A DNA stretch of 64,000 nucleotides from Candidatus Peregrinibacteria bacterium (GCA_016220165.1 JACRIE010000042.1:20379-84378), one strand, 5' to 3'. Positions 1,259-48,088 are shown, numbered from the stretch's first letter. Numbers and translations: made by a program. Notes: a model not told the origin generated them from the sequence alone.

Positions 1259-1899
1259 ATGACGAACCAACAAAACAAGCTCGTACTTTTTCAGGATAAA
1301 AAAATCCGTCGCATTTGGCACAATGACGAATGGTTTTTTTCAGTAGTAGATATCGTAGAAGCACTGACGGAAAGTCCTTCCCCGAGACAATATTGGGGGA
1401 TGCTAAAAGGACGTGAGCCTCAGTTGTTAACAATTTGTTTACAACTGAAATTGGAAAGTATTGACGGAAAAAAATACGTCACAGATTGCGTTAATACCAA
1501 AAACGCTTTTCGTTTAATCCAGTCGATTCCAAGCCCAAAGGCCGAACCTTTCAAAATGTGGCTTGCTCAGGTGGGCAAAGAGCGATTGGATGAGATTGAA
1601 AATCCCGAACTGGCGCAGGAACGCATGAAAGCGCTTTACGAACAAAAGGGCTATCCAAAGGACTGGATCGATAAACGGCTTCGCGGAATAGCCATCCGCC
1701 AAGATCTCACCGAAGAGTGGAAGGAGCGAGGCATTACAGACCAAAAAGATTACGCGATTTTGACTGCGGAAAAGTAGCCAAACGCGGCGGTTCCGTGGCC
1801 GGAGTGGCAAGGAAGGAAACTGAAAAAGAACTTGGCCGGAGCGTGATTTCCAACGAAAACTATTTGTCGGGTAAAAAATCAGCGAAAAAATTGAATTAA
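1259..1899 (+). pseudogene. Bro-N / phage antirepressor-type DNA-binding gene, internally deleted and frameshifted
   Basis: ORF 1259..1777 has the Bro-N family pattern (KIRRIWHNDEWFFSVVDIVEALT, IQSIPSPKAEPFKMWLAQVG, YPKDWIDKRLRGIAIRQDLTEEW, YAILTAE) and then stops. The family C-terminus (KRGGSVAGVARKETEKELGRSVISNENYL) continues in another frame (1717..1899), with the central part missing. Confidence 0.6.
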
Positions 1900-1914: not shown

Positions 1915-4308
1915 ATGCGCTTCAGGTTCTCTAAAAATCAAAAATGGTGGCTTCTCCTTCCTCTTTTTTTATTGTTCCTCTTCGGCGTGTGGTTTTTCCT
2001 CTGGCCGCTGCCTGGCGCCTTGCGCCAATCGCTCAATCACAGTCCCGTCAAACTCCTCGATCGAAATGGAGCGCTGCTGTATGAGGTGCGCTCCGCTGAT
2101 TTCGGGGGACAGGAATACAAGCCGCTCGCCGGGATTCCCAAGGAATTGATCCTGATCGTGCTCGCCACGGAAGACCGCTCGTTCGCACAGCATCCGGGCA
2201 TAAGCCTGAAAGGGATCCTTCGCGCCGCGTGGCAGAATTTCACGTCCGGCAACGTGGTGTCTGGGGGATCCACGATCACCCAACAGCTCGTCCGGCTACG
2301 ACTGCAACCCAAAGAAAGGGGGTACGCGTACAAACTGAAAGAGATTCTGCTCGCGCTCAAACTCGAACGAGTCGCCAACAAATCTAAAATCCTTGAGGAT
2401 TATTTGAATAATATCTACTTGGGACACCAAGCTTATGGCGTCCAAGCCGGCGCCACAATCTACTTCAACAAAAACATCAGCGAACTGTCGCTGGCCGAAA
2501 CAGCGTTACTCGTGGGTCTCATCCAGTCTCCCGCCTCGTACGATCCGTTCGCTCACTTCGCGCTCGCCAAAAAACGGCAAAAAGTCGTCCTGAAATCCAT
2601 GGAGGACGTGGGCATGATCACGGCGGAGGAAGCCAAAGAATTACAGCAGGAGCCGATCCGTCTGGGGCACGGAAAAATAAAAATCCGCGCGCCGCATTTT
2701 GTGATGTGGATGCGCTCCATGGTAAGGCCGCAAAATTTTGCGGCCCGACAGGGAGCGTCAACCGAAATCCGCACCACGCTCGACCTCTCGCTGCAATCCG
2801 AAACCGAGCGGATCGTGGACTATCAGCTCGAAAAACTGAAGGACAAAAACGTCACCTCCGCCGCGGTCGTGGTGTTGGACGCGCGTCAGGGGGACGTGCT
2901 CGCCATGGTGGGTTCCGGCGATTATTTCGACGCGGATCATGACGGCGCTTTCAACGCGGCCATCAGTCCGCGTCAGCCAGGCTCAGCGCTCAAACCGTTC
3001 ACCTACGCGCTCGCGCTAAGAAGTGGCGACACCGCCGCGAGCACCGCCGCGGACGTGGAGACCCGGTTCTTCACGCAAGAAGGCAATCCGTATTCGCCCC
3101 GCAATTTCGATTACGGTTATCACGGGTTGGTACGCTATCGCGAAGCGCTGGCGAACTCGTACAACATCGCCGCAGTCAAAGTGCTTCAAAAGGTCGGCGT
3201 GGATTCGCTTTTGAAATTCCTCCGCGCAGCCGGTCTCACCACGCTAAACAAAACTCCTGAACATTATGGTCTCGCGCTCACGCTGGGCGACGCCGAAGTT
3301 AGCCTGCTCGAACTCACGCAGGCCTACGGCGTGTTCGCGCGTGGCGGCGTCACCATGCCGATCCGCACGTTACTGGACCAGCCGATAGCGCCGGGAGAGC
3401 CGATTCTGGACAGCAAAATCGCCTGGCTCATCTCGGATATTTTGAGCGATCCTCAGGCGCGCCTGCCGGAGTTCGGCGAAAGCAGCGCGCTCGACTTCGA
3501 CTTCCCTGTGGCGGCCAAAACCGGCACCACGCGCAACTCACGCGACAACTGGACGCTGGGCTACACGCCCGATTTCGTCGTGGGCGTGTGGGTCGGCAAC
3601 GCGGACAATACGCCCATGAAGAACACCTCGGGCGTGACGGGCGCGGGCCCGATTTTCCACGACGTACTGCTCGCGGCCGTTAAAAACCACCCGCGTACAG
3701 ACTTTATTCAGCCGCGAGGGTTAGTCAAAAAAGAGATCTGCCGGCTCTCCGGAAAACTTCCAACGCCCGAGTGCAGGGAAACCATTCCCGAATGGTTTAT
3801 CCAAAGAACCGAACCGAAAACGCCGGACGACATTTTTATCCGCGTCAAAACGGACCGACGAAACGACTTGCTCGCGGAACCTGATTGCCCCGCGCAATAC
3901 ATTGAAGAAAAAGTATTCACGCTTTTCCCTCCGGAAGTTCGAACCTGGGCGCGCGAGAATGGATACAAAGAACCTCCTGTAAACTTTTCGCCTTTGTGTC
4001 CGCAAGGAGCTGTTGCCACAACGCAATCTCAAGGAGAGGATTGGGTCTCGATCCAAAAACCGCACGCGAACGAAAGTTTTTTACTCGATCCGCTCATTCC
4101 AGCTAAAAATCAAAAAATAATTTTAGAAGCGGAGGCTGGAAAAAATGCGACAACGATTGACTGGTTCATCGACGACAAAAAAATTGGCTCAGCCAAAGCG
4201 CCAAACTATCGCCTCGAATGGCCACCCGTCATCGGACGTTTCCGCGTGGAAGCCAAAGCTCCCAAGAGTCAAGACAAAGTGACGATCGAAATTCTGAATC
4301 AAAAATAA
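1915..4308 (+). CDS. pbpC: penicillin-binding protein 1C (bifunctional transglycosylase/transpeptidase)
   Basis: GT51 motifs EDRSFAQHPG and GGSTITQQL. Transpeptidase motifs SALKPF (SxxK), SYN and KTGTT. C-terminal immunoglobulin-like extension typical of PBP1C. N-terminal TM helix. Confidence 0.8.
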   Translation: MRFRFSKNQKWWLLLPLFLLFLFGVWFFLWPLPGALRQSLNHSPVKLLDRNGALLYEVRSADFGGQEYKPLAGIPKELILIVLATEDRSFAQHPGISLKGILRAAWQNFTSGNVVSGGSTITQQLVRLRLQPKERGYAYKLKEILLALKLERVANKSKILEDYLNNIYLGHQAYGVQAGATIYFNKNISELSLAETALLVGLIQSPASYDPFAHFALAKKRQKVVLKSMEDVGMITAEEAKELQQEPIRLGHGKIKIRAPHFVMWMRSMVRPQNFAARQGASTEIRTTLDLSLQSETERIVDYQLEKLKDKNVTSAAVVVLDARQGDVLAMVGSGDYFDADHDGAFNAAISPRQPGSALKPFTYALALRSGDTAASTAADVETRFFTQEGNPYSPRNFDYGYHGLVRYREALANSYNIAAVKVLQKVGVDSLLKFLRAAGLTTLNKTPEHYGLALTLGDAEVSLLELTQAYGVFARGGVTMPIRTLLDQPIAPGEPILDSKIAWLISDILSDPQARLPEFGESSALDFDFPVAAKTGTTRNSRDNWTLGYTPDFVVGVWVGNADNTPMKNTSGVTGAGPIFHDVLLAAVKNHPRTDFIQPRGLVKKEICRLSGKLPTPECRETIPEWFIQRTEPKTPDDIFIRVKTDRRNDLLAEPDCPAQYIEEKVFTLFPPEVRTWARENGYKEPPVNFSPLCPQGAVATTQSQGEDWVSIQKPHANESFLLDPLIPAKNQKIILEAEAGKNATTIDWFIDDKKIGSAKAPNYRLEWPPVIGRFRVEAKAPKSQDKVTIEILNQK

Positions 4309-5114: not shown

Positions 5115-5390
5115 ATGAGTAAAAAAACAAAAATTGTTCTCATTATTGTGGCTATTGTTGCCGCAACCATAGTCGCCTTGCAGGCCACCTTAGGAATCCC
5201 GGGGAAATGGTTGCAGGCTTCCATCTTGGGTGGAACTCAAATCGAATCAGTCATACCCGTGGAACTTCAGGATACAGCTAAAAAGGCAAAACCCACTAAT
5301 AAAAATCAAATGGGTGGCGGTGGGACTATCAAACCGGGAACCAATGGTCAAATGGGCGGCGGCGGGACTATCAAACCAAACGCTCGTTAA
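5115..5390 (+). CDS. small membrane-anchored/secreted protein with tandem Gly-rich repeat
   Basis: N-terminal hydrophobic helix (IVLIIVAIVAATIVAL). C-terminal tandem NQMGGGGTIKPGT / NGQMGGGGTIKPNA. Its stop is directly adjacent to the stop of the convergent cyclase gene. Confidence 0.4.
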   Translation: MSKKTKIVLIIVAIVAATIVALQATLGIPGKWLQASILGGTQIESVIPVELQDTAKKAKPTNKNQMGGGGTIKPGTNGQMGGGGTIKPNAR

Positions 5391-8300
5391 TTAAGGGACT
5401 TTATGATAAGGAGCCAATTCATTTTTAAGACAACCGTTAAGGTCCTCTCGGACTGAAGCGCTTATAGTTACATCCTGGGCCAACGCGGCAACTTCATTGT
5501 AGTAGCGTTGGCCCTTTTCTCGTTGCCCTGAATAATAATAGGCATACGCGAGATTCGCGGCGGCATAAGCCGTATGCCGGGTGAGCTGATGTTCTTTGGA
5601 TAAACGATAGCCCGAAAGAGACCAACGGATACAAGCTTCACAATCTTCTTGAAGCTCGTTTGCATACATTCTCTTGCCGCAATTACGCTCAATGGCACGC
5701 TGCGCTTCATTGGCTAAATTTTCGAGCATAAAACATTCATGTGTCGCGCTGCCTGCCTGTTGGGCGATCTCCAGTCCGGATTCGTGATATTTCTGAGCCT
5801 GCCTTCGATCTTGACGAATGGCGAAAGAAAATAAATGATGATGACGCGCCCGGGCTTCATACGCTTCGCCGCACGCAATCAGTAAATTAGAAACCCTATG
5901 GAGATTGCTGGGACCAACGATCACATCGGCATGCTCTCTATAAAAAACGACTGCCTTCGTTAAAGAACGAATCATTTCCGCATTCAGGTCGCTTCCTCTA
6001 TCCCACTTCGATGGTGTGGCTCGTTTTAATTTATAGCGCTCTTGCAGAATACGACCGCGCAGAAATTGAAAAAATAGGACAAATTGGGGGTATTCTATAA
6101 TGCCGCCGGATATCAGAAGCTCCTCGCAACGTTGTTGCGCCTGTCGTAAAATAGCTTCTGCCTGCCGGGGATTTTTCTGCGCGATTTGAATAGCCCGATA
6201 AAGAAAAGCTATAATCGCGCTATCTTGAAAATTGAAAAAATGAATAATAAAACGCGGACCTGCATTCTGGCCAAATTTTTTAAGTCTATCAAGCATGGCT
6301 TTCTGCTCTTGGGCCAGAGTTTCAAAAGGCGCAGGGTCTCTTCCCGCTCGCATAATAATGGCTTCGGTTTTTCCGCGAAGGAGCTCAAGCCGCGCGAAAA
6401 GATGTTCGGCTTCGGATTCCGAAGATGGAATATGTTCAAGGGCAAGCGCCTGATCGAAACACGTAACCGCACCTTCCAAATCATGTCGGGAAGCGATTTT
6501 TGTTCTTAGCTTTCCTAAATCCGCAAGGCACGCGCGAATTTCCAAAGGACGATTGAGACGCTGTGCCGCCTCAAGAGTTTTTTCAGCATAAGCAATAGCG
6601 CGGCGTCTCAGCGATGGACTGCCCTTTGTCAGACGAAGAAGATTATTTCCATGCTGTAAAACCTTTTCGTTATCTTCTAATCTTAGCGCGTACCGAAAAA
6701 GAGCATCCTCATATTGCAAAGAATTTTGCTCTCGATAGGTGGCCACGGCGCCGCCAGCCCCTTCTAATATTTCAACGGCTCTTCGCAACTGAGGATTCGC
6801 GTCTTGTCCAAGCGTGCCACGATTAATAGCTTCACCCATTAAAACACTCTTAAATTTTACTTCTCTTGAAGAAACCGTAACAAATCCCATCATTTCTAAA
6901 TCAGTAAGATTTCGTTCCAGGGAAGCGGATTCCCCTCCGTAAAGAGCTTCGATAAAAAAATGTGGAACGGGAGAGCCAAGGATAGAAAGTAAAATAAGAA
7001 TGTCGCGCGCGTCATCGCTCAGGGCTCCCTGTTCTATAAGTCTATCAATATTGGACCAAATCAACTCCGTTATCTTCGTGCGCCCGCCCAAATCGGCTGG
7101 CAATGGCTTTTGCAATAAATCAGGCGATCCCGGACGTAAATATTCATCGCGAATAAGCAAAGCGACCACTTCACGAATAGCGAGAGGATTACCCTCGGAC
7201 ATTTCCCATACGACTTTCACAAGACTGTCCGGAACTTCGGACGCCCGTTCTCCAATCGCTTCTTCTTGTTCTCCTTTTAAAAGATGACAAATATAGGCGG
7301 CAACGCTCGCGCGCGTCAATGAAGGAATAACAAAAGACTCACCCTCTAAACCTTCTCCCGCTTTCTGCCACTGACGTTGCGTGCTCAAAAGAACTAAAGG
7401 GATTCTATCCTCTTTAAGGTTACGATTAACAAAATCAAAAATAAGACGCGAATCCTCATCGCACCACTGCATATCTTTAACGAAAATAAGCTGGGGTCTG
7501 CTTTGAGCGACGCTACGGACTAAAAGCAACATCGCGCGCTGAATCGTAGTGAGCTCATAAGAAGCTTCAATCAATCCTGCCAAACTCAAAAGCGCGGATC
7601 GCATGGGGTCGCCAATAGATAAAGAATCTAAACGTGTTTCCATTTCCTGACGCTGTTCTTCCAGCAATCGCTCAGGATCGCTATTTAAGAGGACTCTTAC
7701 CAGATCTCCGCAGATCGCGAAAGGCGCCTGATGGGGTTGATTTTTAATCGCGTGGATAGCGGGCGCTGATTCAGCCGCTCTTTGTCCTACGCGAGCGATA
7801 AGCGCGTTCGCGAAAGCGGTTTTTCCGGATCCCATGTCCCCTTTGATAGCTAAATGGCGATAACGCTGCCCCTGGAAGGCTTGATCCATAATCCCCATCG
7901 CGCGCGCCAAGTCAGCCTCCCGTTCCAAAAGCGCGCTATCTTCCACTCGAAGTTCCTCCGGCCCCATTCCATATCGTCTTTTTATTCCTTCAACAGCATA
8001 GCATGACACCGCCTCTCCAATACCCTTAAGAGCCTTAATCATCATGGTTTCGTGTTGAGCTAATGGACGGCATTTTTCGCGAACCGATTCAGAAACAAGG
8101 ATAGTCCCGAGGGCCGTGGCAGCCATTAAACGCGCGGACATATTCACGCTGGATCCCAAAATAGTATGCTCATAAGTCCCCTGAGGTTTGCCTTCGCTAT
8201 CGATCGCTCCCATCCTGCCCGAGATAGTGGTTCCGGACGCGATACCCATTTTTAAACCCATGGCAGCGCCCTCCTTTTCCATAATCGCGCACGCGCATCG

Positions 8301-9557
8301 ATACGCTCGCTCTTCGCAATCTCCGTCACGACCGCTGAGCCCTTTAAAAGTAATGATTATTTTAGATCCATCCGTTTTATTGATCGCGCCTTTGGTACGC
8401 GCTACTTCCTGCGCGACCCGGATATAAAAAGCGCGCAGATATCGTTGCCAGCCCGGATCCGATAAATCCCTTTCGGGCATGGCGATGAACAAGGTGGCAT
8501 GCCGCGTAAATCCGCTCACCTCGCTGATATGCCGCCCCCCGTGTCTCATGCCCGCGAGCAAACGATCGCTGGTTTTGCGTGGCGTGAAAGTAAGGAGTGT
8601 CGAAATCGCTTCAGTCAAAACCGCGCGTTGCCGCTCAGGCGTTATTGCGTTGCTCGCGACCAAAAGCCGTGCCATCTCCGCTTTAAAATTAAAAATGCCA
8701 GGATCCTCCTCCGCTAAAAAACGCGCCCGTTCCTCGCCATGGATTTTCCTCTCTCCGCGATCGGTATGCGCTTCTGCATTCAAAGCGTCATGATACGCGT
8801 CTCCGCTCACAAATGAACTTCGCTGCTTGGCGTCCCCTGGACGGACCGCGTCGGACAATATAGCCATTTGCACTTCGCCATAAGATCCGCCGATTTTAAT
8901 CGTAATTCGTCCGGTATCTCGGGCGATTCTAAGCAATTCGTCCGCCGCTTGCCCTGCCCGCTCCATGGAATGTGACCCGCGTATCATGATCGTCATGGAA
9001 TCTCCGCCCAATTTCAAAACCGTGCCCCCATGCGCCCGTACCACGGCATCGAACTCGGCAAAAGTAGTATTAATTGCCTCACGGATCCCTCCCGCGTCTC
9101 CGCGCTCCAGCGTCGCTTGCTCCACCTGCGCGGTAAAGCCAGCCACATCCGCGTAAAGCACAGTCCCCATTTCCTTATAAATCGAAGTAAGATCGGTATC
9201 GCCTGTGCGCCGCGCTTCGGAAAGATGCCGTAAAATCAATTCAGACCCCGGAACGACTTTCATGACTTCCTGAAGGACTTCACTGGCGCGACGTACTTTT
9301 TCCGGATCATCCGGGGCGGCTTCGGCCGCGTCGATCATGAGTTGCGCCTTATTCCAAAGCGGAGCAAAAGCGCCCGGCGGACACGGCAAAGCCGCGCGCG
9401 GACTAAGAGGCGGAGCTCCTCCCGCTGTCCCGGAAACGCCCGCGACAGCGGACAATGCCTGCCTCATCGCGGCCACAGCCTCGTGATCGTGAGATCGGGC
9501 GTCAGCCTGTGGTTTGGATCCCTCTGCTTCACAAGGGGGGTCGGAGCGCTCGGGCAT
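5391..9557 (-). CDS. tandem class III nucleotidyl cyclase domains + P-loop (STAND/AAA-type) NTPase + TPR/helical repeat protein
   Basis: Cyclase domain 1 has YADVAGFT and KLGGDSM. Cyclase domain 2 has GSSVNMSARL. Walker A is GDMGSGKT and Walker B-like is LIFVKDMQWCDEDS. About 600 aa of helical repeat follow. Confidence 0.8.
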   Translation of the reverse strand: MPERSDPPCEAEGSKPQADARSHDHEAVAAMRQALSAVAGVSGTAGGAPPLSPRAALPCPPGAFAPLWNKAQLMIDAAEAAPDDPEKVRRASEVLQEVMKVVPGSELILRHLSEARRTGDTDLTSIYKEMGTVLYADVAGFTAQVEQATLERGDAGGIREAINTTFAEFDAVVRAHGGTVLKLGGDSMTIMIRGSHSMERAGQAADELLRIARDTGRITIKIGGSYGEVQMAILSDAVRPGDAKQRSSFVSGDAYHDALNAEAHTDRGERKIHGEERARFLAEEDPGIFNFKAEMARLLVASNAITPERQRAVLTEAISTLLTFTPRKTSDRLLAGMRHGGRHISEVSGFTRHATLFIAMPERDLSDPGWQRYLRAFYIRVAQEVARTKGAINKTDGSKIIITFKGLSGRDGDCEERAYRCACAIMEKEGAAMGLKMGIASGTTISGRMGAIDSEGKPQGTYEHTILGSSVNMSARLMAATALGTILVSESVREKCRPLAQHETMMIKALKGIGEAVSCYAVEGIKRRYGMGPEELRVEDSALLEREADLARAMGIMDQAFQGQRYRHLAIKGDMGSGKTAFANALIARVGQRAAESAPAIHAIKNQPHQAPFAICGDLVRVLLNSDPERLLEEQRQEMETRLDSLSIGDPMRSALLSLAGLIEASYELTTIQRAMLLLVRSVAQSRPQLIFVKDMQWCDEDSRLIFDFVNRNLKEDRIPLVLLSTQRQWQKAGEGLEGESFVIPSLTRASVAAYICHLLKGEQEEAIGERASEVPDSLVKVVWEMSEGNPLAIREVVALLIRDEYLRPGSPDLLQKPLPADLGGRTKITELIWSNIDRLIEQGALSDDARDILILLSILGSPVPHFFIEALYGGESASLERNLTDLEMMGFVTVSSREVKFKSVLMGEAINRGTLGQDANPQLRRAVEILEGAGGAVATYREQNSLQYEDALFRYALRLEDNEKVLQHGNNLLRLTKGSPSLRRRAIAYAEKTLEAAQRLNRPLEIRACLADLGKLRTKIASRHDLEGAVTCFDQALALEHIPSSESEAEHLFARLELLRGKTEAIIMRAGRDPAPFETLAQEQKAMLDRLKKFGQNAGPRFIIHFFNFQDSAIIAFLYRAIQIAQKNPRQAEAILRQAQQRCEELLISGGIIEYPQFVLFFQFLRGRILQERYKLKRATPSKWDRGSDLNAEMIRSLTKAVVFYREHADVIVGPSNLHRVSNLLIACGEAYEARARHHHLFSFAIRQDRRQAQKYHESGLEIAQQAGSATHECFMLENLANEAQRAIERNCGKRMYANELQEDCEACIRWSLSGYRLSKEHQLTRHTAYAAANLAYAYYYSGQREKGQRYYNEVAALAQDVTISASVREDLNGCLKNELAPYHKVP

Positions 9558-9582
9558 GACAAATAAATCAAAAAAGGGGATA

Positions 9583-9611
9583 ATTATAGATTAAATCCGC
9601 TCGTTTGATAA
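9583..9611 (-). promoter_or_regulatory. sigma70-like promoter of the cyclase/NTPase gene
   Basis: Minus strand reads TTATCA, 17 nt, TATAAT; the -10 lies about 26 nt upstream of the ATG at 9557. Confidence 0.4.
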
Positions 9612-9642
9612 GGAAATACTTTTTTTGTTGAAATCCGGACAC

Positions 9643-9677
9643 AAAAAAGCCCGATACAATATTGATCGGGATTTTTT
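9643..9677. terminator. bidirectional intrinsic-terminator-like hairpin
   Basis: AAAAAAG-CCCGAT-acaatatt-ATCGGG-ATTTTTT: a stem flanked by an A run and a T run. Confidence 0.5.
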
Positions 9678-9930
9678 GTAGGGCCTCGCTGACCTGATTC
9701 GAAGGCGGTAAAAATAATGTACCGTGAACCAGACGAAGCCAAACAGAGAATGGTGACTAATCATCTCGAACCTGGGCTGAGTTTTGGTTTTTGTTTTCGT
9801 CCTTCCAAGACGTACTCTTTGGCGTTGTGTTTGTATTTTTGTTTTTATATAAAAATGACACAACAGAATAAATGGGGTTGAGCTTATACGAGTCAGGTAA
9901 AGCTGCATCACCAAGCCTAGGGGCTGGATA

Positions 9931-10030
9931 GCGACGAGTGACAAGTGACGAGTTAATCTTTCTCGTCTCTCGTCACTATTTCTTCGTCTCTCGTCACTAT
10001 TTCTTCGTCTCTCGTCACACGTCACTATAC
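9931..10030. repeat. CGTCAC-family repeat: inverted arm plus about 2.8 tandem 21-nt units
   Basis: GCGACGAGTGACAAGTGACGAG (9931-9952) is followed by TCGTCTCTCGTCACTATTTCT repeated at 9963, 9984 and 10005. It is enclosed by the stem AAGCCTAGGGGC / GGCCTCTAGGCTT. Confidence 0.85.
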
Positions 10031-10186
10031 GGCCTCTAGGCTTAAACGAAATGAGTTGTAAAAGAGCAATTTGTCCCGCAGCTTCGTGCGGGGTTAAGGT
10101 CAGAGGGATTTTTCAAACAGTTTTATGATCTCTGTCCGGCATTGTTTGATAACCGCGAGATAAAATTGTTATTGAAAAATCATGTT

Positions 10187-10214
10187 ATTATATCAATACA
10201 AAAATATTAAGCAA
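10187..10214 (-). promoter_or_regulatory. strong sigma70-like promoter reading leftward into the non-coding region
   Basis: Minus strand reads TTGCTT, 16 nt, TATAAT (perfect -10). Confidence 0.45.
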
Positions 10215-10352
10215 GTTATTTGTATAGACTAAAAATAATACTATGTCTTAATACGATTTGCGTTTGAATTTATCGCTAATCGATCAACGCTAATCGCCAA
10301 TCGAATCTGTTGGAAATTGTAAACTAATCTTGTAATCTTGTAATAATTAATA

Positions 10353-14250: not shown

Positions 14251-15741
14251 ATGACCGCTACACCTCAATCACCGGCAGAACAACCCAAGGAAGTAGATCT
14301 AGGCCTTGATCAATTGAAAGCAAAGCTTGCCAGCCTAAAATATGAAACAGGAGACAATGCCGCAAAATATGAATCACAACTTCGCTTGGTGTTCAACAGT
14401 GATATGGACGAATTGAGAATCGCCCGAGGCGAACCGCGTGATAAATTATGGAATGAAGTTTGGGCAAGACTCAAAGCAACGTCCGATTGGAAAGGGCTCA
14501 TAGAAAACAAAGTTGAAAAAGCTGGCGAAAAAGGCGCGCTCGACAAATTTGTAGAAGACGCGGAAAACCTGGACAGCCTCAAGGCCGCCATCGACGCGGC
14601 CAAGGGCGACGTAGGGATGGTCCGGCAATTCGTGGGCTATGTCAAAGATAAGTGGGAAAAAAGCGATCTGAGTAAAACACTCGGGTGGGACAAGCTTGCC
14701 GCTTTTATTGGCGGAACAATGGTTGCATGGGCCACGGAAGGATTGGCCAAAGCGGAAAAAGAGGGCGGACTGGCTAGCACCCTCAAAAAACCGTTCTTTG
14801 AAGGACTTCAATCTTTAGGTAACTGGCTTTTGCCAAAAAATCAGAAGGAAATGAAAAAATTAGAAGGAAAAATCAAAAAAGCCCTTGATGCCAATCCAAA
14901 AAAATACGCTGAAGCAAAAACCAGAGCGGAAGAACTTTTAAAGCTAGACCCGAAAAATAAAATAGCTCTAGCAGCTATAGAAGAAGCGGAAAAGCATGAA
15001 GACGATACTCCAGCCCCGGCAGCTCCCTCGACCGCTCCCGCTGCACCCCCTCCGGCGCCATCCGCCCCGCCCGCCGCCCCTACGACGCCCCCGCCCGCAG
15101 AAGAACCCGAAAAGACTCCCGCCGGATCAACGGCCTTGGCTGCTGGATCCGCTGCGGATTCTGACGCCGCGCGCAAAGCCCCAGAGAAAGCAGAAACATA
15201 TAAAAAAGAAATACAAGGAATCCAAAAACTTTTTGCTGATGCAAAAATCCCATTAAGGCCGCCAACATCTGCTGAATATGGAGAATTACTTGCAACCTGC
15301 GGCGGAGACAAAAAGAAAGCGGAAGAGATGGTAAAAAATACTACCGCTGACTATCTGGGAAACCCAGCTGGGCATCCGGAAATAACTTCGGATTTATTCT
15401 TTGCCGCCAAACAAGTTAAATGGCATGCGAAGAAACATTCTGAACTCAACAATTTTCAATTTGTTCTCATGGATGTGGCGATCCCTCATGCACGAGCAAA
15501 ATTCCTCGAAGACGTGCTCAAACAAAATCCTTATGAACCAAAATATTACTTTGCCAGAGGATACCCTGCGCCGGAGTCTCTCCGCAAATTCATGAATGCT
15601 TTACGAATAGGAAACGAAGACGTCTTGGCGCAATTTTTAAGAGCCCCGGAAGAAAAAGACAAAAAACCAAGTCCAGATTCTCCTCCTGCCCCTCGCGTAG
15701 CGACTGAGAGAATAGCAGGTGGCGGACGCAATCGTTCATAA
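14251..15741 (+). CDS. hypothetical protein with central Pro/Ala-rich linker
   Basis: 496-aa ORF: helical N-terminal half, linker TPAPAAPSTAPAAPPPAPSAPPAAPTTPPPAEEPE, globular C-terminal half. Confidence 0.6.
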   Translation: MTATPQSPAEQPKEVDLGLDQLKAKLASLKYETGDNAAKYESQLRLVFNSDMDELRIARGEPRDKLWNEVWARLKATSDWKGLIENKVEKAGEKGALDKFVEDAENLDSLKAAIDAAKGDVGMVRQFVGYVKDKWEKSDLSKTLGWDKLAAFIGGTMVAWATEGLAKAEKEGGLASTLKKPFFEGLQSLGNWLLPKNQKEMKKLEGKIKKALDANPKKYAEAKTRAEELLKLDPKNKIALAAIEEAEKHEDDTPAPAAPSTAPAAPPPAPSAPPAAPTTPPPAEEPEKTPAGSTALAAGSAADSDAARKAPEKAETYKKEIQGIQKLFADAKIPLRPPTSAEYGELLATCGGDKKKAEEMVKNTTADYLGNPAGHPEITSDLFFAAKQVKWHAKKHSELNNFQFVLMDVAIPHARAKFLEDVLKQNPYEPKYYFARGYPAPESLRKFMNALRIGNEDVLAQFLRAPEEKDKKPSPDSPPAPRVATERIAGGGRNRS

Positions 15742-15749
15742 AAAATAAC

Positions 15750-16235
15750 ATGCCCACACTCGCCCCCAGCATCATCGCGATTCCCGAGCTCCTGGCCAAA
15801 ATCCAGTCGAGTCTGATGGGCGATGAGCAGAAAAAGGCGCTCCTCGACGTCCTGCCCCGCGCCACGGAAACGGATCGCGCGCAGATCCTGGCGCTCATCG
15901 ACAAATCGAACGCCGAGGCAGAAGGGATTCAGAAGGACTATGAAGTACACGTCGGCGACATCAACATGAAATATAAACAGAAATTGGACGAACTGGTGCG
16001 TGTGAAAACCCGCCGCGCGCGTGAAACCTTCGAGACCATGGACGAAGAAAAGAAGGTGCAGACCATGATGACGCTCGAGCAGGAACTGCAAAACGTAAAA
16101 GACGCTCCGCTAACGAGCGCCGTCCCGACCCTCGCGCATCACACTTCTCGTCACTCGTCACTCGTCGCTCTCATATTCTTCCTCATCCTCGGCCTCCTGG
16201 CCTTCGGCGCCTGGCTGGCGCTAAAAATGCTCTAA
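15750..16235 (+). CDS. hypothetical C-terminally membrane-anchored protein
   Basis: 161-aa ORF with C-terminal TM helix (LVALIFFLILGLLAFGAWLAL). The segment just before the TM helix (TSRHSSLVAL) is encoded by a CGTCAC-family repeat. Confidence 0.55.
   Translation: MPTLAPSIIAIPELLAKIQSSLMGDEQKKALLDVLPRATETDRAQILALIDKSNAEAEGIQKDYEVHVGDINMKYKQKLDELVRVKTRRARETFETMDEEKKVQTMMTLEQELQNVKDAPLTSAVPTLAHHTSRHSSLVALIFFLILGLLAFGAWLALKML
16147..16170. repeat. CGTCAC-family repeat inside a CDS
   Basis: CTCGTCACTCGTCACTCGTCGCTC. Confidence 0.7.
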
Positions 16236-16728: not shown

Positions 16729-17286
16729 ATGAACCACCTCTCTCATCCTTATCGGCACTTCGACCCAGTAGCACGCTTTGTATACCTAAATAATCCGCAA
16801 CAAATCGCCGCAACGATCGAAACGGCCAAACCCGGAGAAATAACGACTGCTGTTACGGCGGATAATTTGAAAGCCGCGATAGATAAGGCGCAAACGGCCA
16901 TAAAAAAGGGCAGCGAAGATCTGGCAAAAACCTTGGGCAGGGATGCTACGACAGGGAGAGAGAAGGATGCATTGAATGCATTGAATGCATTGGAGAAAGA
17001 GTCGGCCGCAAAATTCAGGGAACTGATCGATGCCCATGGAGTAGCGGTCAGCGACGCTAGCGCAGATAAACAAACCAAATTAGAAACGGTTAAAGGAAAT
17101 TTGGATGCAGCCATTAGCGCGTTGGTCACGAAAATCCATGCAACGACTGACGAAGGCGCCAACGACGAACTCGATGACGCTCAGAAAAAAATCGCCTACA
17201 CCGTTCTCGTCAATCAAATCCCTGAGTTTGGAAAAAAAAGCCCGCTGAAGGCACTCCCCAATACAAAGCCCTCATGGCTATTATAG
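16729..17286 (+). CDS. hypothetical protein
   Basis: 185-aa ORF, Ala/Lys-rich helical, no recognised domain. Confidence 0.5.
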   Translation: MNHLSHPYRHFDPVARFVYLNNPQQIAATIETAKPGEITTAVTADNLKAAIDKAQTAIKKGSEDLAKTLGRDATTGREKDALNALNALEKESAAKFRELIDAHGVAVSDASADKQTKLETVKGNLDAAISALVTKIHATTDEGANDELDDAQKKIAYTVLVNQIPEFGKKSPLKALPNTKPSWLL

Positions 17287-18461
17287 CCACAATCACACCG
17301 GAACAATTAAATGGATTAACGGAAAAAAGTGACAGTATCCCTCTGCGCCCCAAACAGGGCGAAGATGCAATGGAAAAAACTTTTGACGGCAAACTGCCGA
17401 AGGAAAAACCGGAAGTAAAAGAAGGCAAAACCAAGGCTTTAACAAAATTCATTACTGAAAAGGACATCGGAACAACAAAACAAATCCCCGATGCCGCTTG
17501 CGAAGCCGTAGTCAAATATCTCGCCACGAGATATGAGGTAACGCAGGAAGCGGCAGATAAACCATTAAAAATCGACGGCACGGAAATCAGAGACATGGAT
17601 GCGTTAATGCCGAAGCTGGACGGCTTAAAGGGATCAGATCAAAAACTGCCAGCTAATCTAACGGAAGCCGCTCAAAAAGGCACTGCTACAACCGAACAGC
17701 TCGGTCACATCCGCGATTACCTCAAGCAAGTCAAAGCCGAAGGCGATGAAAAGCCCAAAGGCTGGATGGATAATATAGGAGAGCTCTTTTCTGCCATAAC
17801 TCAACTCATCGCGGCATGGAAAAGCCAGGACTTCGATACGCTGGGCGACGTGGCAAAAGACCTGCAGGCAGGCAAAAACCCGCTGGAAGAACAGCAAAAG
17901 GCCAGCGATACGTATCGCACAATCCTTGAACATCGCTCTCCTGCGCCAAATCTTAATGCCATGCTCGCGGCTTACGCCAATCCTCGCGGCGCGGAAGCTA
18001 AAAATTTATTCGGAAGTAAAAATACTCGACTCAATGACGCCCAAGCGAATACGCCTAATTCTGAAACCCGCTATCGCACCGCGGCCAAAGAAGCGATCAA
18101 AAAACACTTGGAAGACAAATTGGGTGTCGCGATAGACGAAAACAGCGTAAGTAGGGGCACAAATGGCGCCATGCGGCTGACGTACCAAAAAGACGACGTC
18201 AAATACCGGCTGGACGTAAGCCAAGGAGCTGATAGAAAAATCCGTGTCATAAAAACAACGGTCGGAGCGAATGGAACGGAAACAAAAAACGACGCGTATG
18301 ATCTCACGGATATCGATGCGGTTAATCAGTTCATCGCGGCAACGGATTTAAACTCATTTAATGCAAATAAGGTGACTCTTGTTGCAACGCCAGCGCCAGC
18401 AGCAGCAGAAGCCCCCCCCCAGCAAAACCAAAGTAGGGGGAGAATAGCGCCGGCTGAGTAA
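17274..18461 (+). CDS. hypothetical protein
   Basis: 395-aa ORF overlapping the previous stop by 13 nt; no recognised domain. Confidence 0.55.
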   Translation: MAIIATITPEQLNGLTEKSDSIPLRPKQGEDAMEKTFDGKLPKEKPEVKEGKTKALTKFITEKDIGTTKQIPDAACEAVVKYLATRYEVTQEAADKPLKIDGTEIRDMDALMPKLDGLKGSDQKLPANLTEAAQKGTATTEQLGHIRDYLKQVKAEGDEKPKGWMDNIGELFSAITQLIAAWKSQDFDTLGDVAKDLQAGKNPLEEQQKASDTYRTILEHRSPAPNLNAMLAAYANPRGAEAKNLFGSKNTRLNDAQANTPNSETRYRTAAKEAIKKHLEDKLGVAIDENSVSRGTNGAMRLTYQKDDVKYRLDVSQGADRKIRVIKTTVGANGTETKNDAYDLTDIDAVNQFIAATDLNSFNANKVTLVATPAPAAAEAPPQQNQSRGRIAPAE

Positions 18462-26747: not shown

Positions 26748-28208
26748 ATGAAAAAATCATTATTACTTCTGTGTGCTGTTTTTGGCATATGGACAGCAGT
26801 CCTGCCGGCTCAGGCGCAGGAAGCGCCCTTCTTTTCAGAAACAACTCAGAAGCTGTTCACGGTTTCCGGAGAATTTCTTCCTGCCACGCTGGTCGATTTC
26901 AGTGTGAGCCGCGACGGAAAAAGTGTCGCCTATAGCCTCTTGCAGGGAAATAAAGAATGGGTGGTATTCAACGGAAAACCCGGAAAACAGTACGACAACG
27001 TGAGCCTGCTCACCGTGTCACCCGACGGAAAAAGTGTTTTTTATGCGGCCAAAAACGACAATTCGGATAATGAAATTCTGGTAATGAATGGACGCGAGGA
27101 AAGAAGGGCGGGAAGAATCATCACCGCCGACAATGAAACCATTCCATTTTTTAAAAACGAGCCTGTATATTACACCTATTCCGAAGCCAGGGATACGGTT
27201 GCGCTCTACATCGGCGCTAAAAAAATCATCGGCGGACAATTTCCTTTCTTTGATAAAAATTTTACAAAAATGGGATACCTTCTCCAGACACGGCTGAAAG
27301 ATGGAACTGCGATCCAGTCCCTGGTAGACGATGAAAACGGAAGGAAAGGGAAAGTGTATGAAATGATTTATGGCACTCAATTCAATGACGATGGAACCAT
27401 CTCCTATCTTGCCAAAGCTAAAAATGGATTCTTTCTGGTACGGGATAACCGTGAAATTCTTTCGTACCCCGCCCTCCCGGATGAAAATCTCGACTACTGG
27501 TCTGCCAAAATAAGCCCTGACGGAAAAAATATGATATTCGATATGGATATTCACAAAAAAACAGTGACCGAAGAAAGCGTGCATGTGAATCCATGGGATT
27601 TCGACTCATATCATTATGTCGGAAAACGTAAAAGCGAACGACGTGACGCCATGGTGGGGGCAACGAATCTGATGCTTTTCAGCCCCGACTCCAAAAGAAC
27701 CGCGTACACCGTGTACAGGAACGGCGTTAGGGTTGCCGTTGACGGCAAGGAAGGGCCAACCGCATTTAGCGACATGGAAAACATCACGTTCAGCCCGGAC
27801 TCTAAACACGTGGCTTATATCGGAATGAAGTCGTACGCGGTCAACGTTTCCGAAAATAAGCTACGCTTCACCTACTTCCGTCCAAGAAGCCTCATACTAG
27901 ACGGCAAGGAAATCAAAACATACGGCTTCGATGACGTCGGAGACGGAGGATACGTGGGCGGCTATCTCGAATTCACACCCAAGGGAAACGGCCTCGTTTA
28001 CACCACCTACAACAACATGACGCTCGAACAAAAATTCGTGGTGGAAGGAAAAGAATTGAAAGACTATTATACAAGTGACCCTCAATCCACTATTTCTCCT
28101 TTCATATTCAATGAGGACGGCACAAAAGTGGGAATCTTTGCCATGAAAACCAACCCGGACACTTCGCTGGAAGAAGGATGGTGGATCGTGGAAGACCTGG
28201 AACAATAA
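26748..28208 (+). CDS. secreted beta-propeller-like repeat protein
   Basis: Signal peptide MKKSLLLLCAVFGIWTAVLPAQA; recurring SPDGK(S/N)x.Y motifs reminiscent of TolB/WD40-like repeats. Confidence 0.55.
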   Translation: MKKSLLLLCAVFGIWTAVLPAQAQEAPFFSETTQKLFTVSGEFLPATLVDFSVSRDGKSVAYSLLQGNKEWVVFNGKPGKQYDNVSLLTVSPDGKSVFYAAKNDNSDNEILVMNGREERRAGRIITADNETIPFFKNEPVYYTYSEARDTVALYIGAKKIIGGQFPFFDKNFTKMGYLLQTRLKDGTAIQSLVDDENGRKGKVYEMIYGTQFNDDGTISYLAKAKNGFFLVRDNREILSYPALPDENLDYWSAKISPDGKNMIFDMDIHKKTVTEESVHVNPWDFDSYHYVGKRKSERRDAMVGATNLMLFSPDSKRTAYTVYRNGVRVAVDGKEGPTAFSDMENITFSPDSKHVAYIGMKSYAVNVSENKLRFTYFRPRSLILDGKEIKTYGFDDVGDGGYVGGYLEFTPKGNGLVYTTYNNMTLEQKFVVEGKELKDYYTSDPQSTISPFIFNEDGTKVGIFAMKTNPDTSLEEGWWIVEDLEQ

Positions 28209-28285
28209 GCCATTTTATCGTTCACCCTTGCTCCCCGATTTTTCCTTCGCTACAATGGGGCCAATACCCGCACTTTGCTCGCCCT

Positions 28286-29218
28286 ATGATCCCAACTTTC
28301 CCCGCTAGACTGTCACAAAAAGAGCGTCTTCTCAAAGCCGTCACCATGCGGCGCGATATCGTCACCATGACTCATGCCGCGGGTTCCGGGCATCCCGGAG
28401 GTTCGCTTTCCGCCGTGGAACTTCTCGTCGCCCTCTTTTTTGAACATTTGAAACACAATCCCGCCGATCCCCAGTGGAAAGAGCGGGATTTTATGATTTT
28501 CTGCAAATGCCACATCACACCTACCATTTATTCGATCCTCGCGCGCAGCGGCTATTTTTCTCCCGAAATTCTTCTCACATTCCGTAAATTCGGCTCTCCA
28601 TTGCAAGGTCATCCCTACCGTTTTTATCCTGCGGGCATCGAAATGTCCGGCGGATCCTTGGGACAAAATCTTTCCATTGCCGGCGGCGTGGCGCTCGGGC
28701 TCAAAACTCAGGGAAAACCAAACCGAGTTTACGCGCTCTCCAGCGAAGGAGACCTTCAGGAAGGGCAAAGCTGGGAAGCGATCATGTCCGCGGCCCACTT
28801 CCGCCTTGATAACCTGTGCCTCTTGGTCGACTACAACAAACTGCAGATCGACGGTTACGTCGAAGACGTGATGGGAGTGCATCCGCTCGATGAGAAGTTT
28901 CGGAGCTTCAACTGGCACGTCCTTTCCGTGGAAAACGGCCATGATTTCAATGAAATCAACGCGGCCATATCCTCGGCGAAAACGCTGACCGGAAGGCCCC
29001 AGGTCATCATCGCGCACACGGTCAAAGGTAAGGGGATATCGTTCATGGAGAATCAGGCCGGATGGCATGGCAAAGCTCCCAACGCGGATGAATGTCAAAA
29101 AGCGCTCATCGAACTCGCACAGCAGGAGGAACTGATTTTACAAAACGATCTGGTTCCCGCCTCCCCCATTAGCTACACCTTCAAAATCAAAGAGAAAATC
29201 CCCCCTTATAAAGTCTAA
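28286..29218 (+). CDS. transketolase, N-terminal subunit
   Basis: GSGHPGGSLS and thiamine-diphosphate-binding region GDLQEGQSWEA. Start chosen at Met 28286 to avoid overlap with the upstream gene. Confidence 0.85.
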   Translation: MIPTFPARLSQKERLLKAVTMRRDIVTMTHAAGSGHPGGSLSAVELLVALFFEHLKHNPADPQWKERDFMIFCKCHITPTIYSILARSGYFSPEILLTFRKFGSPLQGHPYRFYPAGIEMSGGSLGQNLSIAGGVALGLKTQGKPNRVYALSSEGDLQEGQSWEAIMSAAHFRLDNLCLLVDYNKLQIDGYVEDVMGVHPLDEKFRSFNWHVLSVENGHDFNEINAAISSAKTLTGRPQVIIAHTVKGKGISFMENQAGWHGKAPNADECQKALIELAQQEELILQNDLVPASPISYTFKIKEKIPPYKV

Positions 29219-29245: not shown

Positions 29246-30214
29246 ATGAATAAGCGAGAAATGCTCCTCCAAAGGCAAGGCTGGGCCGACGCCCTCATTG
29301 AATTGGGAACGAAAGACCCGCGGGTCGTCGTCCTGGACGCGGACCTGGCCAAATCCACGCTCACCTGCCAGTTCAGGGATAAATTCCCGAAGCGCTTTTT
29401 TGACATGGGAATCGCGGAACAAAACATGGTGAATACCGCCGGCGGACTCTCGCTGACAGGCCTCATACCCTTCGTCACAACGTATGGCGTGTTCGTGTCC
29501 GGGCGCGCGTGGGAGCAGATCCGCACGAGCGTGTGCTACGGAAAACTGAACGTCAAATTCGGCGGCGCCCACGGCGGCATTTCCGTGGGGCCTGATGGCG
29601 CCACGCACCAGGCGCTCGAAGAAATCTCTATCATGCGGGTACTGCCGGAAATGACAGTTCTCGTGCCCGCGGATTATCACGAAACCAAAAAGGCGGTACT
29701 GGCCTCCGCGTCGATCGACGGTCCGGTTTACATCCGCTTCGGGCGCAAAAAAACGCCCGTGGTAACCGCTAAAGACACGCCCTTTGAAGTAGGGAAAGCC
29801 ATTATCATGAAGCAAGGCACGGATCTCACGATCATTGCCTGCGGTACCATGGTAGCCTCTGCGCTCGACACCGCGGAACGATTAGAAAAAGAAGGCGTTT
29901 CCGCTGAAGTCATCAATCTACATACCATTAAACCGATTGACCGGGACGCGATTGTCAGCTCCGTCCGAAAAACTGGTTGCCTTGTGACCGCAGAAGAGCA
30001 CCAGTTGGCGGGCGGAATGGGAAGCGCTGTCCTTGAAGTATTGGCTGAAGAAATGCCAGTTCCTGTCGAACGCGTCGGCATCCGGGACACCTTTGGCGAG
30101 TCCGGAACGCCGCAGGAACTGATGGAAAAATACGGCATCACCTCCAAAGAGATCTTCGAAAAAGCCCATTCAGCGCTTTCGCGCAAAAAAATAGACATTA
30201 GAAGCCTGTCCTGA
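29246..30214 (+). CDS. transketolase, C-terminal subunit
   Basis: FFDMGIAEQNMV and GPDGATHQALEEISIMRVLP. Confidence 0.85.
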   Translation: MNKREMLLQRQGWADALIELGTKDPRVVVLDADLAKSTLTCQFRDKFPKRFFDMGIAEQNMVNTAGGLSLTGLIPFVTTYGVFVSGRAWEQIRTSVCYGKLNVKFGGAHGGISVGPDGATHQALEEISIMRVLPEMTVLVPADYHETKKAVLASASIDGPVYIRFGRKKTPVVTAKDTPFEVGKAIIMKQGTDLTIIACGTMVASALDTAERLEKEGVSAEVINLHTIKPIDRDAIVSSVRKTGCLVTAEEHQLAGGMGSAVLEVLAEEMPVPVERVGIRDTFGESGTPQELMEKYGITSKEIFEKAHSALSRKKIDIRSLS

Positions 30215-34101: not shown

Positions 34102-34205
34102 AAAAAGAAAAAAATAAAATAAATTCCATTTTTGTAAAGTTATTTTAAAATTCAGGAGCCTTTCCTGGATTGTTTTTTTGGCTGTTTAATGCTAAAATAA
34201 TAGGA

Positions 34206-45200: not shown

Positions 45201-45656
45201 ATGTCTCAGAATACAGCGCTTAATCTCGATGACGGAAGTGATCGTCAGCACGACGGCGCCCACCGCGCCGATATACAAAGAGCCCTCCGCGCGTCGGAAA
45301 AAGCGGCCGACGGAGCCCCCTTCCCAGTCGAAGTTCAACCCACTGATGGAGAAAGAGCAGATAGAGAAGCTCTCCTTTCGGCGACAGGCAATCTCCATAT
45401 CGCGGAAAGAATTCTTGCCAAAACACTGGGTGGAACTGACGTCGTGGAAGCAATGAAAGAAAGAGGCATTAGCGTAGAACGACTCGTAGCGGAAGCTCTT
45501 GAAGAAGCCAATACCGGTAAAAATGTCACGAGCATCGCATTCTCTCGGGCGGTAAGAATGGCAAATCAGATCCTGAGAGAAAAGAGGATGCCTCAATTAC
45601 CGGATATTCATAAGGTGAGTAGGCAATTAGTAGAAGAGTTCCAACAGGAAATTTAA
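45201..45656 (+). CDS. hypothetical protein sharing an N-terminal module with the HD-domain protein
   Basis: 151-aa ORF. AADGAPFPVEVQPTDGERADREALL is similar to ATDAVFPVEVKPTPEERAAREALF in the product of 46266..47336. Confidence 0.55.
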   Translation: MSQNTALNLDDGSDRQHDGAHRADIQRALRASEKAADGAPFPVEVQPTDGERADREALLSATGNLHIAERILAKTLGGTDVVEAMKERGISVERLVAEALEEANTGKNVTSIAFSRAVRMANQILREKRMPQLPDIHKVSRQLVEEFQQEI

Positions 45657-45694
45657 AACCGTGCATTCAAATAAAAATCAATAAATTTTAAAAA

Positions 45695-46309
45695 ATGAAA
45701 CCTCCTTCTGCACCACAACCATTCGACCCCCAAGCCTTAGCGCGAGAGATGGGACTAATGGAAGCCAGATACCTCAAAGCGGTCAAGAATAAAAGCGCCG
45801 GAGTTCTGACGGGTGACACTCGTCCGGAACAACGGATAGCCGCAAACCGTGACGTGTATCGAGCTGCACTCAATGGAAAAGCCGTAGTTTCAGCCAACAC
45901 CGCAGCAAAGGGGGCCGCTCCGGATGAAGAACATGAGTCCACCCAGGCAGAAAAAGACGAAAGAATGGAAGTCTTACAACGTCAGCAAGAACTTGAGGCG
46001 AAAGCTGAAAATTTTATCCGGAGCATGGAGTGCAATCAGGCAATACGAAAAGCGCTGAAGCTTGCGGGAAACGATCCGCGTGTTGAAAGCAGAGAAATAC
46101 GAGAAGAACTCAAGCTATATTTTATTAGCAAGGGAGCTTTGAGACCTCAAAGACTATTCAAAACCATGTGCGCACGGCTCGCGGGAGACTCCGACCCTGA
46201 AGCATTTATGACCCGAGCTTTAATTACAATTGGAAAAACTTTTGACACCTTTTGCCTGCCTGATATCACGCGGCAGCTAGTGCCGGAGAAGCCTGAACGG
46301 CGGGCCTGA
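45695..46309 (+). CDS. hypothetical protein
   Basis: 204-aa ORF with no recognised domain. Its 3' end overlaps the convergent HD gene by 44 nt. Confidence 0.5.
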   Translation: MKPPSAPQPFDPQALAREMGLMEARYLKAVKNKSAGVLTGDTRPEQRIAANRDVYRAALNGKAVVSANTAAKGAAPDEEHESTQAEKDERMEVLQRQQELEAKAENFIRSMECNQAIRKALKLAGNDPRVESREIREELKLYFISKGALRPQRLFKTMCARLAGDSDPEAFMTRALITIGKTFDTFCLPDITRQLVPEKPERRA

Positions 46310-47336: not shown

Positions 47337-47488
47337 AAACAATACTTTTTAGGAGGTAAGTATATTACTATACTATACTTTAAGTATATTGTCAATACAC
47401 ATATTTTGACAAAATATCAAAAAGTATTAATATAATAAAACTGAAATACTGAACTCGAAAAAAATTCTGATTTTATAAGTAGTTCAGT

Positions 47489-48038: not shown

Positions 48039-48088
48039 CTCGTCTCTCGTCACTCGTCACTAGTCACTCGTCTCTCGTCACTCGTCTC
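48039..48088. repeat. CGTCAC-family repeat covering the VirD4-like gene stop
   Basis: CTCGTCTCTCGTCACTCGTCACTAGTCACTCGTCTCTCGTCACTCGTCTC supplies the last residues RRVTRDE and the stop. Confidence 0.8.

Follow-up and report, generated by a model that had tools for sequence, protein, structure and literature searches.

A probable sAC-type tandem cyclase joined to a STAND-TPR module in a Candidatus Peregrinibacteria bacterium

A stretch of 64,000 nucleotides from a Candidatus Peregrinibacteria bacterium (GCA_016220165.1 JACRIE010000042.1:20379-84378), hereafter called the window, carries on its minus strand, at positions 5391–9557, a gene for a protein of 1388 residues in which two cyclase domains are followed by a STAND NTPase and a long array of helical repeats. 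We consider it very probable that this protein is a class IIIb tandem cyclase of the type of the soluble adenylyl cyclase found in mammals (sAC/ADCY10), whose first and second cyclase domains (C1 and C2) form one site making cAMP under the regulation of the STAND-TPR part. The first-pass annotation of this DNA had recognized the complementary cyclase pair, the NTPase and the repeats, and had read the whole as an immune sensor; the C1/C2 and STAND parts of this interpretation held up in our analysis and the immune part did not, and the fact that the layout is the known architecture of sAC had been missed.

The open reading frame (ORF) is a single uninterrupted one, intact from its ATG start to its stop codon as annotated, and because an independent Logan assembly contig encodes an identical 1388-aa protein, the gene is not an assembly artefact. 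We found all the motifs quoted earlier at their places: YADVAGFT (with D137), KLGGDSM (K182 and D186), and SGDAYHDALNAE (251–262) in the first cyclase domain, FIAMPERD (357–364) and GSSVNMSARL (468–477) in the second, and GDMGSGKT (573–580) in the NTPase. A single close orthologue, P0001, encoded on a metagenomic contig, shares 48–50% identity with the window protein over 96% of its length, and all modules after the low-complexity N-terminus are conserved between the two (41–62% identity). The gene and its modules are the following.

5391..9557, minus strand: whole gene, sAC-type tandem cyclase, STAND NTPase and helical repeats, 1388 aa; stop codon 5391-5393.
9378..9557, minus strand: aa 1-60, Ala/Pro/Gly-rich low-complexity N-terminus; 27/60 residues align to P0001; GC 0.67.
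9183..9377, minus strand: aa 61-125, conserved three-helix N-terminal extension; 62% identity to P0001.
8703..9182, minus strand: aa 126-285, cyclase domain 1, C1-like, with D137, D186, K182 and K221; from Pfam, alignment and AlphaFold.
8514..8702, minus strand: aa 286-348, helical C1-C2 linker, profile-aligned to the sAC linker; helices in the model; 53% identity to P0001.
7977..8513, minus strand: aa 349-527, cyclase domain 2, C2-like, with K394, T465, N472, R476 and K511; A359 and S398 replace the metal-binding Asp.
7233..7940, minus strand: aa 540-775, STAND NOD, AAA_16; from Pfam, motif survey, AlphaFold and Foldseek.
7818-7841, minus strand: aa 573-580, Walker A GDMGSGKT.
7473-7490, minus strand: aa 690-695, Walker B-like LIFVKD; K694 replaces the usual acidic residue.
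6843..7232, minus strand: aa 776-905, helical and winged-helix "arm" between NOD and sensor; from the model and the 6mfv match; 57% identity to P0001.
5394..6842, minus strand: aa 906-1388, TPR-like alpha-solenoid, presumed sensor; from the model and Foldseek; 41% identity to P0001.

The family to which the protein belongs was collected by an exhaustive HMMER search with residues 1–560 as query, which returned 2960 matches, 262 of them with E-values below 1e-10. The best 150, on which all residue counts are based, are mostly 1200–1450 aa long and have both cyclase domains aligned in one stretch. This tandem family comprises no fewer than 260 cluster representatives, spread over Chloroflexota, Acidobacteriota, and further phyla; in two of its members (P0002 and P0003), two Guanylate_cyc stretches are followed by AAA_16 and recognizable TPRs. 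A genome scan with a profile of typical members found carriers in many Anaerolineae, Oscillochloris trichoides, Roseiflexaceae, Acidobacteriota, Calditrichota, and Delongbacteria. No close orthologue of the window protein was found by means of clade-specific patterns among 185,579 GTDB species representatives, nor in JGI metagenomes, which yielded only distant AAA_16/TPR relatives; the window clade is rare, and it is divergent within the family.

Profiles built from family members lead to sAC. Searched against the PDB, a four-member tandem profile retrieved the human sAC core with an E-value of 9.5e-39, in one C1-linker-C2 alignment spanning sAC residues 40–460, the best single-domain cyclase reaching only 1e-22, and a 14-sequence profile brought up mammalian ADCY10 together with bacterial proteins from metagenome-assembled genomes (MAGs). 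Human sAC aligned with full-length bacterial members over about 400–430 aa (27–31% identity, E 1e-36 to 1e-46), and the window protein could be aligned to these proteins across its two cyclase domains (E 1e-23 to 1e-12).

For the assignment of catalytic residues, human sAC residues 40–460 were rebuilt from the HMMER output, their numbering was checked, and they were aligned with the window protein and the 150 relatives. The equivalents of sAC D47, K95, D99, and K144 in C1 are D137, K182, D186, and K221, and those of K334, T405, N412, and R416 in C2 are K394, T465, N472, and R476. The reciprocal positions are degenerate, with A359 and S398 in C2 and with H256 and N260 in C1, where Asn and Arg would be. 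It had been noted from the sequence that domain 1 keeps both metal-binding Asp and lacks the Asn and Arg, and that domain 2 lacks the first Asp and retains GSSVNMSARL; the alignment agrees on every point and adds that the second Asp is gone from domain 2 as well. As each domain lacks part of the catalytic residues and neither has lost all of them, so that the two complement each other, one composite active site is expected. The residues are split as in human sAC, and the mammalian-style division of labour around a single asymmetric site that the annotation had thought plausible is supported by this alignment and by the predicted structure of residues 60–545. Across the family, the metal-binding Asp of domain 1 are near-invariant (149/150 and 150/150), as are the Asn and Arg of domain 2 (149/150 and 148/150), and the Thr is present in 133 of the 150. 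The orthologue P0001 keeps the complementary pattern and all the mapped catalytic residues.

The AlphaFold2 model of residues 60–545 (pLDDT 82.5, pTM 0.83) consists of two cyclase folds packed together and a helical linker, and it resembles sAC. When this model was compared with the PDB by Foldseek, the top 24 matches were all human sAC, with E-values of 6.5e-22 to 3e-18 and TM-scores of 0.63–0.70 over about 480 columns; next came C1-C2 pairs of transmembrane adenylyl cyclases, and homodimeric cyclases covered just half of the model.

The C-terminal part corresponds to a STAND protein. Pfam reports AAA_16 at 543–723 (E 1.3e-10, above the cut-off), besides the two Guanylate_cyc stretches (E 9e-7), and neither a TPR nor a helix-turn-helix (HTH) family in the 1388-aa protein. 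In the AlphaFold model of residues 531–1388 (pLDDT 82.7), an alpha/beta domain with a P-loop is followed by a helical/winged-helix arm and then by a long solenoid of helical hairpins, and the best Foldseek match of these C-terminal 858 aa is the STAND-TPR protein 6mfv (E 7.7e-12), followed by Avs3, CED-4, Apaf-1, and TPR proteins. The repeat region is made up entirely of helical hairpins from about residue 905 to 1388, with pLDDT mostly above 85, and its matches include LGN/Pins and APC/C TPR proteins. The AAA_16 and 6mfv matches bear out the annotated STAND layout of an NTPase switch followed by a repeat sensor. In its details this description needs amendment: the Walker A motif is as stated, Walker B is atypical, and the repeat tail, put at about 600 aa, comes to roughly 480 aa and is recognized by its predicted fold. 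In a survey of 70 relatives with a recognizable Walker B, the motif ended in ED in 51, DD in 17, EE in one, and TD in one, P0001 having ED; the window protein has LIFV-K694-D695, with a lysine at the position usually occupied by Glu or Asp.

Several observations weigh against an sAC-type enzyme that makes cAMP under STAND control. The window protein on its own matches sAC weakly (E 0.12), so that the link to sAC rests on family profiles and on the predicted fold, and its C-terminal region is likened to that of full-length sAC (sACfl) through published descriptions of the layout. Of the bicarbonate pair, K182 (sAC K95) is present, and the position of sAC Arg176 is occupied by L259 (by Ala or Val in most bacterial members); since this Arg is not conserved, bicarbonate control of the sAC kind cannot be assumed. 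In C2, a clade-specific insertion of 7 aa (about 453–459) takes the place of the Arg that usually precedes the E-Y-T motif, and the K-loop is shortened in the window clade; either change could, to judge from the alignment, alter activity or specificity. K694 may hamper the switch in hydrolysing NTP; the substitution suggests a slow, non-hydrolysing, or constitutively locked switch in this genome's copy. Lastly, phmmer and hmmsearch, within their limited sensitivity, found no cAMP receptor or other ORF binding cyclic nucleotide monophosphates (cNMPs), and no second cyclase, in the 64 kb.

Some of these features would also suit a protein that no longer catalyses, that is, a cyclase-like nucleotide-binding sensor or scaffold resembling the class III cyclase-like ATP-binding protein of Pseudomonas aeruginosa (6yii). 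The clade is highly divergent, the C2 insertion removes a usually conserved Arg, the K-loop is short, the Walker B is atypical, and 6yii itself is among the structural matches, though far down (rank 34). We regard such a pseudo-enzyme as very unlikely, because the top structural matches are active sAC and not 6yii, and because the six canonical catalytic residues and K511 are kept in both orthologues at only 48–57% identity, a retention that indicates selection for catalysis.

The identity of the product raises a related question. Given the Lys/Thr pair of C2 and the homology with sAC, cAMP made from ATP is the most likely product predicted from the sequence. An active tandem cyclase with a different product, cGMP or a cyclic pyrimidine, could be envisaged because the clade-specific insertion adjoins the base-recognizing Thr465 and because the K334-equivalent varies across the wider family (80 Lys, 25 Arg, and other residues in the rest). 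Nevertheless, K394 and T465 match the adenine-recognition pair of sAC exactly and the Glu/Cys(Ser) pair of guanylyl cyclases is absent from the window protein, which makes this possibility highly improbable.

According to the first-pass annotation, the gene might encode a sensor of Pycsar-type defence. In this scenario, similar to that of Avs proteins, an anti-phage STAND sensor would recognize a phage protein and its cyclase pair would then make a cyclic nucleotide alarm. The NOD-arm-repeat module does resemble Avs3, among others; PADLOC gives PycC matches, all weak (E 4e-5 to 0.1); the gene has the look of an accessory one, with a G+C content at third codon positions (GC3) of 0.46 against 0.65–0.70 in core genes and with its rarity and one close orthologue; and an ORF matching the candidate defence family PDC-S13 lies 3.6 kb away. 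However, the best PycC match is a partial-domain one (E 4.1e-5, 21 bits), and such matches reflect the generic cyclase fold and are far weaker than the relationship with sAC. At the specificity positions stands the Lys/Thr pair that sAC-type (class IIIb) adenylyl cyclases have. PycC and the window protein share a class III-type cyclase fold. PycC enzymes have a single cyclase domain, act as homodimers, and are pyrimidine-specific; to our knowledge, they always stand beside a paired effector gene and lack a STAND module (see also PMC11224242). We saw none of these traits in the window protein. A 2026 systematic survey of bacterial STAND sensors makes no mention of cyclases in its main text.

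The genomic context likewise speaks against an immune role. Around the cyclase gene lie the C-terminal part of an a2-macroglobulin gene, a BRO-N ORF, pbpC, a phosphoribosyltransferase (PRTase) gene, a small Gly-rich ORF, non-coding DNA, a DUF881 gene, and recG, and the remaining genes of the window are housekeeping ones and type-IV-secretion-like ATPases. The annotation had seen no obvious effector gene nearby, and we detected none with a cNMP-binding, TIR, or transmembrane (TM) domain, either adjacent or elsewhere in the window. The relatives occur in varied signalling and housekeeping contexts, next to GAF sensor proteins, a response regulator, Lgt, or EPSP synthase; they have no shared partner and no defence island, and they are not regularly embedded in housekeeping signalling operons with LuxR-type outputs. 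The ORFs flanking the P0001 gene on its 4.7-kb contig are unrelated to those of the window. Taken together, these data leave the Pycsar-type reading unsupported; we hold it to be very unlikely, and the window gene is not a new immune system.

Two loci deserve a separate mention. At the locus of one distant relative, P0172, the tandem cyclase-STAND gene, which is apparently split from its TPR part, is followed about 3 kb downstream by a gene for a 139-aa stand-alone cNMP-binding protein (L092 13295-13714, plus strand); this protein is the sole cyclic-nucleotide receptor near any family member examined. In the window, the BRO-N ORF (172 aa, 1259-1777, plus strand) separates the a2-macroglobulin gene (59-910) from pbpC (1915-4308), two partner genes that ordinarily neighbour each other. 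It is this ORF that matches PDC-S13 (E 1.7e-76, profile positions 3–176 of 286 only), and it may represent a mobile or defence-associated insertion that has been truncated. A defence island was considered and rejected, as no defence gene is linked and the lone PDC-S13 candidate has no evident connection with the cyclase gene.

For an sAC-type cyclase with a STAND-TPR regulator, the following mechanism can be proposed; what we infer in it is which substrate is used and which product made, in which direction regulation works, and what the signal is. C1 and C2 of the single chain would pack together as a pseudo-heterodimer with a single interfacial active site, to which C1 would contribute the metal-binding D137 and D186, and C2 the adenine-recognizing K394 and T465, the transition-state residues N472 and R476, and the conserved K511, predicted to contact phosphate. 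The symmetry-related second site would be catalytically dead, with K182 kept and the bicarbonate Arg176 gone. By analogy with STAND proteins of the MalT/PH0952 type and with autoinhibited sACfl, the repeat domain may hold the protein in a closed state of low activity, until the binding of a ligand or partner at the repeats leads to nucleotide-dependent opening or oligomerization and hence to a higher cyclase output. Because the active site is intramolecular, oligomerization is not needed to build it, and relief of autoinhibition, or else clustering, is the probable way in which the switch works. That the sensor imposes a double autoinhibition is a plausible model (PMC6468293).

As to the signal, a bacterium of the Candidate Phyla Radiation (CPR) that depends on a host might use such a protein as a receptor, the STAND-TPR part recognizing a macromolecule of the host cell or of a phage and converting this recognition directly into cAMP or another cNMP. 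We consider this unlikely. If true, the CPR protein would act as a receptor for pattern recognition whose output is a second messenger made by its own enzyme part, and it would offer, in a bacterium, a tractable model of the C-terminal region (roughly 1100 residues) of mammalian sAC, for whose STAND/TPR region a biochemical study of 2025 found no nucleotide regulator (PMC12802110).

The gene had been remarked on as a large investment for a small genome. A small genome is plausible, since RecG of the window is about 60% identical to Peregrinibacteria/Patescibacteria MAG proteins; a regulatory gene of 4.2 kb is a notable expense for a CPR bacterium. The annotation had also described it as monocistronic with its own promoter. 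Two features upstream of the gene bear on this statement.

9583..9611, minus strand: sigma-70-like promoter match TTATCA-17-TATAAT, 26 nt upstream of the ATG; 10 of 12, the region's best score.
9640..9675 (about), minus strand: hairpin between an A-run and a T-run, bidirectional terminator-like; -17.4 kcal/mol, z -4.56.

The promoter-like site exists at 9611–9583 on the minus strand; such matches are common regionally (13, against 7.4+/-2.9 in shuffled sequences, not far above chance). A separate transcription unit is supported by this site, by the terminator-like hairpin, which may insulate the gene from transcription upstream, and by a convergent ORF abutting the stop codon. This 91-aa ORF (5115-5390, plus strand) ends exactly at the stop codon of the cyclase gene and has a hydrophobic N-terminal helix and a duplicated Gly-rich C-terminal motif, QMGGGGTIKP; it had no Pfam or PADLOC match and no counterpart beside the orthologue P0001.

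The intergenic region upstream of the gene (9558-10352, about 800 bp) is unusually long for a compact CPR-type genome. It contains, besides the hairpin, a tandem repeat (21 bp x 2.9, 9959-10018) and only spurious-looking ORFs, and an Rfam scan of it gave sub-threshold chance matches only. A 144-aa ORF (9591-10025, minus strand) was rejected as an upstream operon partner: it is a low-complexity, repeat-derived translation, its span contains the terminator-like hairpin, and it has no family match. The GC3 of the cyclase gene falls to 0.39 in the arm and TPR parts, and such values, compared with those of core genes, would fit an accessory, horizontally acquired, or weakly expressed gene. The GC3 of recA, tyrS, recG, and the a2-macroglobulin gene is 0.65–0.78, and low values are also seen in the hypothetical ORFs 14251-15741, 17274-18461, and 61858-63324.

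Elsewhere in the window, two type-IV-secretion-like ATPases are found among housekeeping genes, one (34170-36185, plus strand) with TraC/VirB4 and TraG P-loop domains, the other (48064-50787, minus strand) resembling the TrwB/TraD coupling protein. Transketolase is encoded on the plus strand by two adjacent ORFs, 28178-29218 for the N-terminal TPP-binding part and 29246-30214 for the pyrimidine-binding and C-terminal parts. Runs of ORFs without a Pfam family occur at 14251-16235 (plus strand) and 45201-47986 (496, 161, 151, 204, 358, and 165 aa); two of these ORFs were searched against PADLOC and had no match.

Compared with known systems, the window protein shares its NOD-arm-TPR organization with STAND-TPR proteins such as PH0952 (6mfv), MalT, and AfsR, but the effector domains of these bind DNA, whereas that of the window protein is enzymatic, with an active site that would form without oligomerization. 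In the mycobacterial proteins Rv0386, Rv1358, and Rv2488c and in the single-cyclase proteins P0005 and P0010, an N-terminal class III cyclase precedes an AAA_16 STAND domain and a TPR sensor. These have one complete cyclase domain, which must homodimerize, and the mycobacterial Rv0386-type proteins end in a LuxR HTH; the window protein, in contrast, has a pre-formed pseudo-heterodimer and no HTH. In Plasmodium ACbeta, another sAC-like tandem, the residues are also divided over two domains (PMC3383692).

The architecture as a whole is already known. One comparative study takes the presence of two catalytic domains together with a P-loop NTPase as the definition of sAC (PMC6660944); sACfl consists of C1-C2, an autoinhibitory motif, a P-loop/STAND region, and further predicted regulatory regions (PMC12802110), the P-loop of the human protein being at 516–523 and putative TPRs at 870–1098 (PMC3475452). 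The window protein and sACfl both lack TM segments, both have the metal-binding Asp in C1 and the Lys/Thr/Asn/Arg in C2, and both continue with a P-loop/STAND domain (about 46 aa past C2 here, about 47 in human) and TPR-like repeats. They differ in their low identity (only about 17–19%), in the replacement of Arg176 by L259, and in the extra N-terminal helices, the C2 insertion, and the Walker B Lys of the window protein, in which we identified no haem-domain or autoinhibitory motif. The helices of the N-terminal extension (at about 67–76, 84–101, and 105–118 in the AlphaFold model) are absent from sAC and from typical bacterial members alike.

Bacterial sAC-like cyclases with C1-C2 and a P-loop/STAND region have likewise been described (PMC12802110, PMC3475452, PMC6660944), and that of Chloroflexus is bicarbonate-responsive, as cited in PMC11006738. 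These proteins, from Chloroflexus aurantiacus and, as homologues, from Anaerolineae and Oscillochloris, belong with the window protein to one HMMER family, with the C1-C2-AAA_16-TPR order, a length of about 1200–1450 aa, and the same split of catalytic residues. Identity to them is 22–34%. Their typical C2 loop, NK[IV]DMGDKGSKYIILFGAP, mirrors the loop NKVFMFDKGCSFLCVFGFP of sAC; in the window protein, the NK[IV]DMGDKGSK loop is shortened and Pfam recognizes no TPRs. The hosts differ too, Chloroflexota and Acidobacteriota for these relatives and CPR/Peregrinibacteria for the window protein. The layout, the sharing of catalytic roles between the two cyclase domains, and the occurrence of the family in bacteria are thus all known already, and the present assignment is a useful annotation rather than a novel type of system. 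With it, the sAC-type C1-C2-STAND-TPR family reaches into the CPR, where signalling repertoires are minimal, and compact, divergent bacterial orthologues in which all modules are under constraint could be used as experimental models for sAC. Relative to the proteins already described, what is new is modest and lies in the divergent clade, the CPR host, the atypical Walker B, and the missing bicarbonate Arg.

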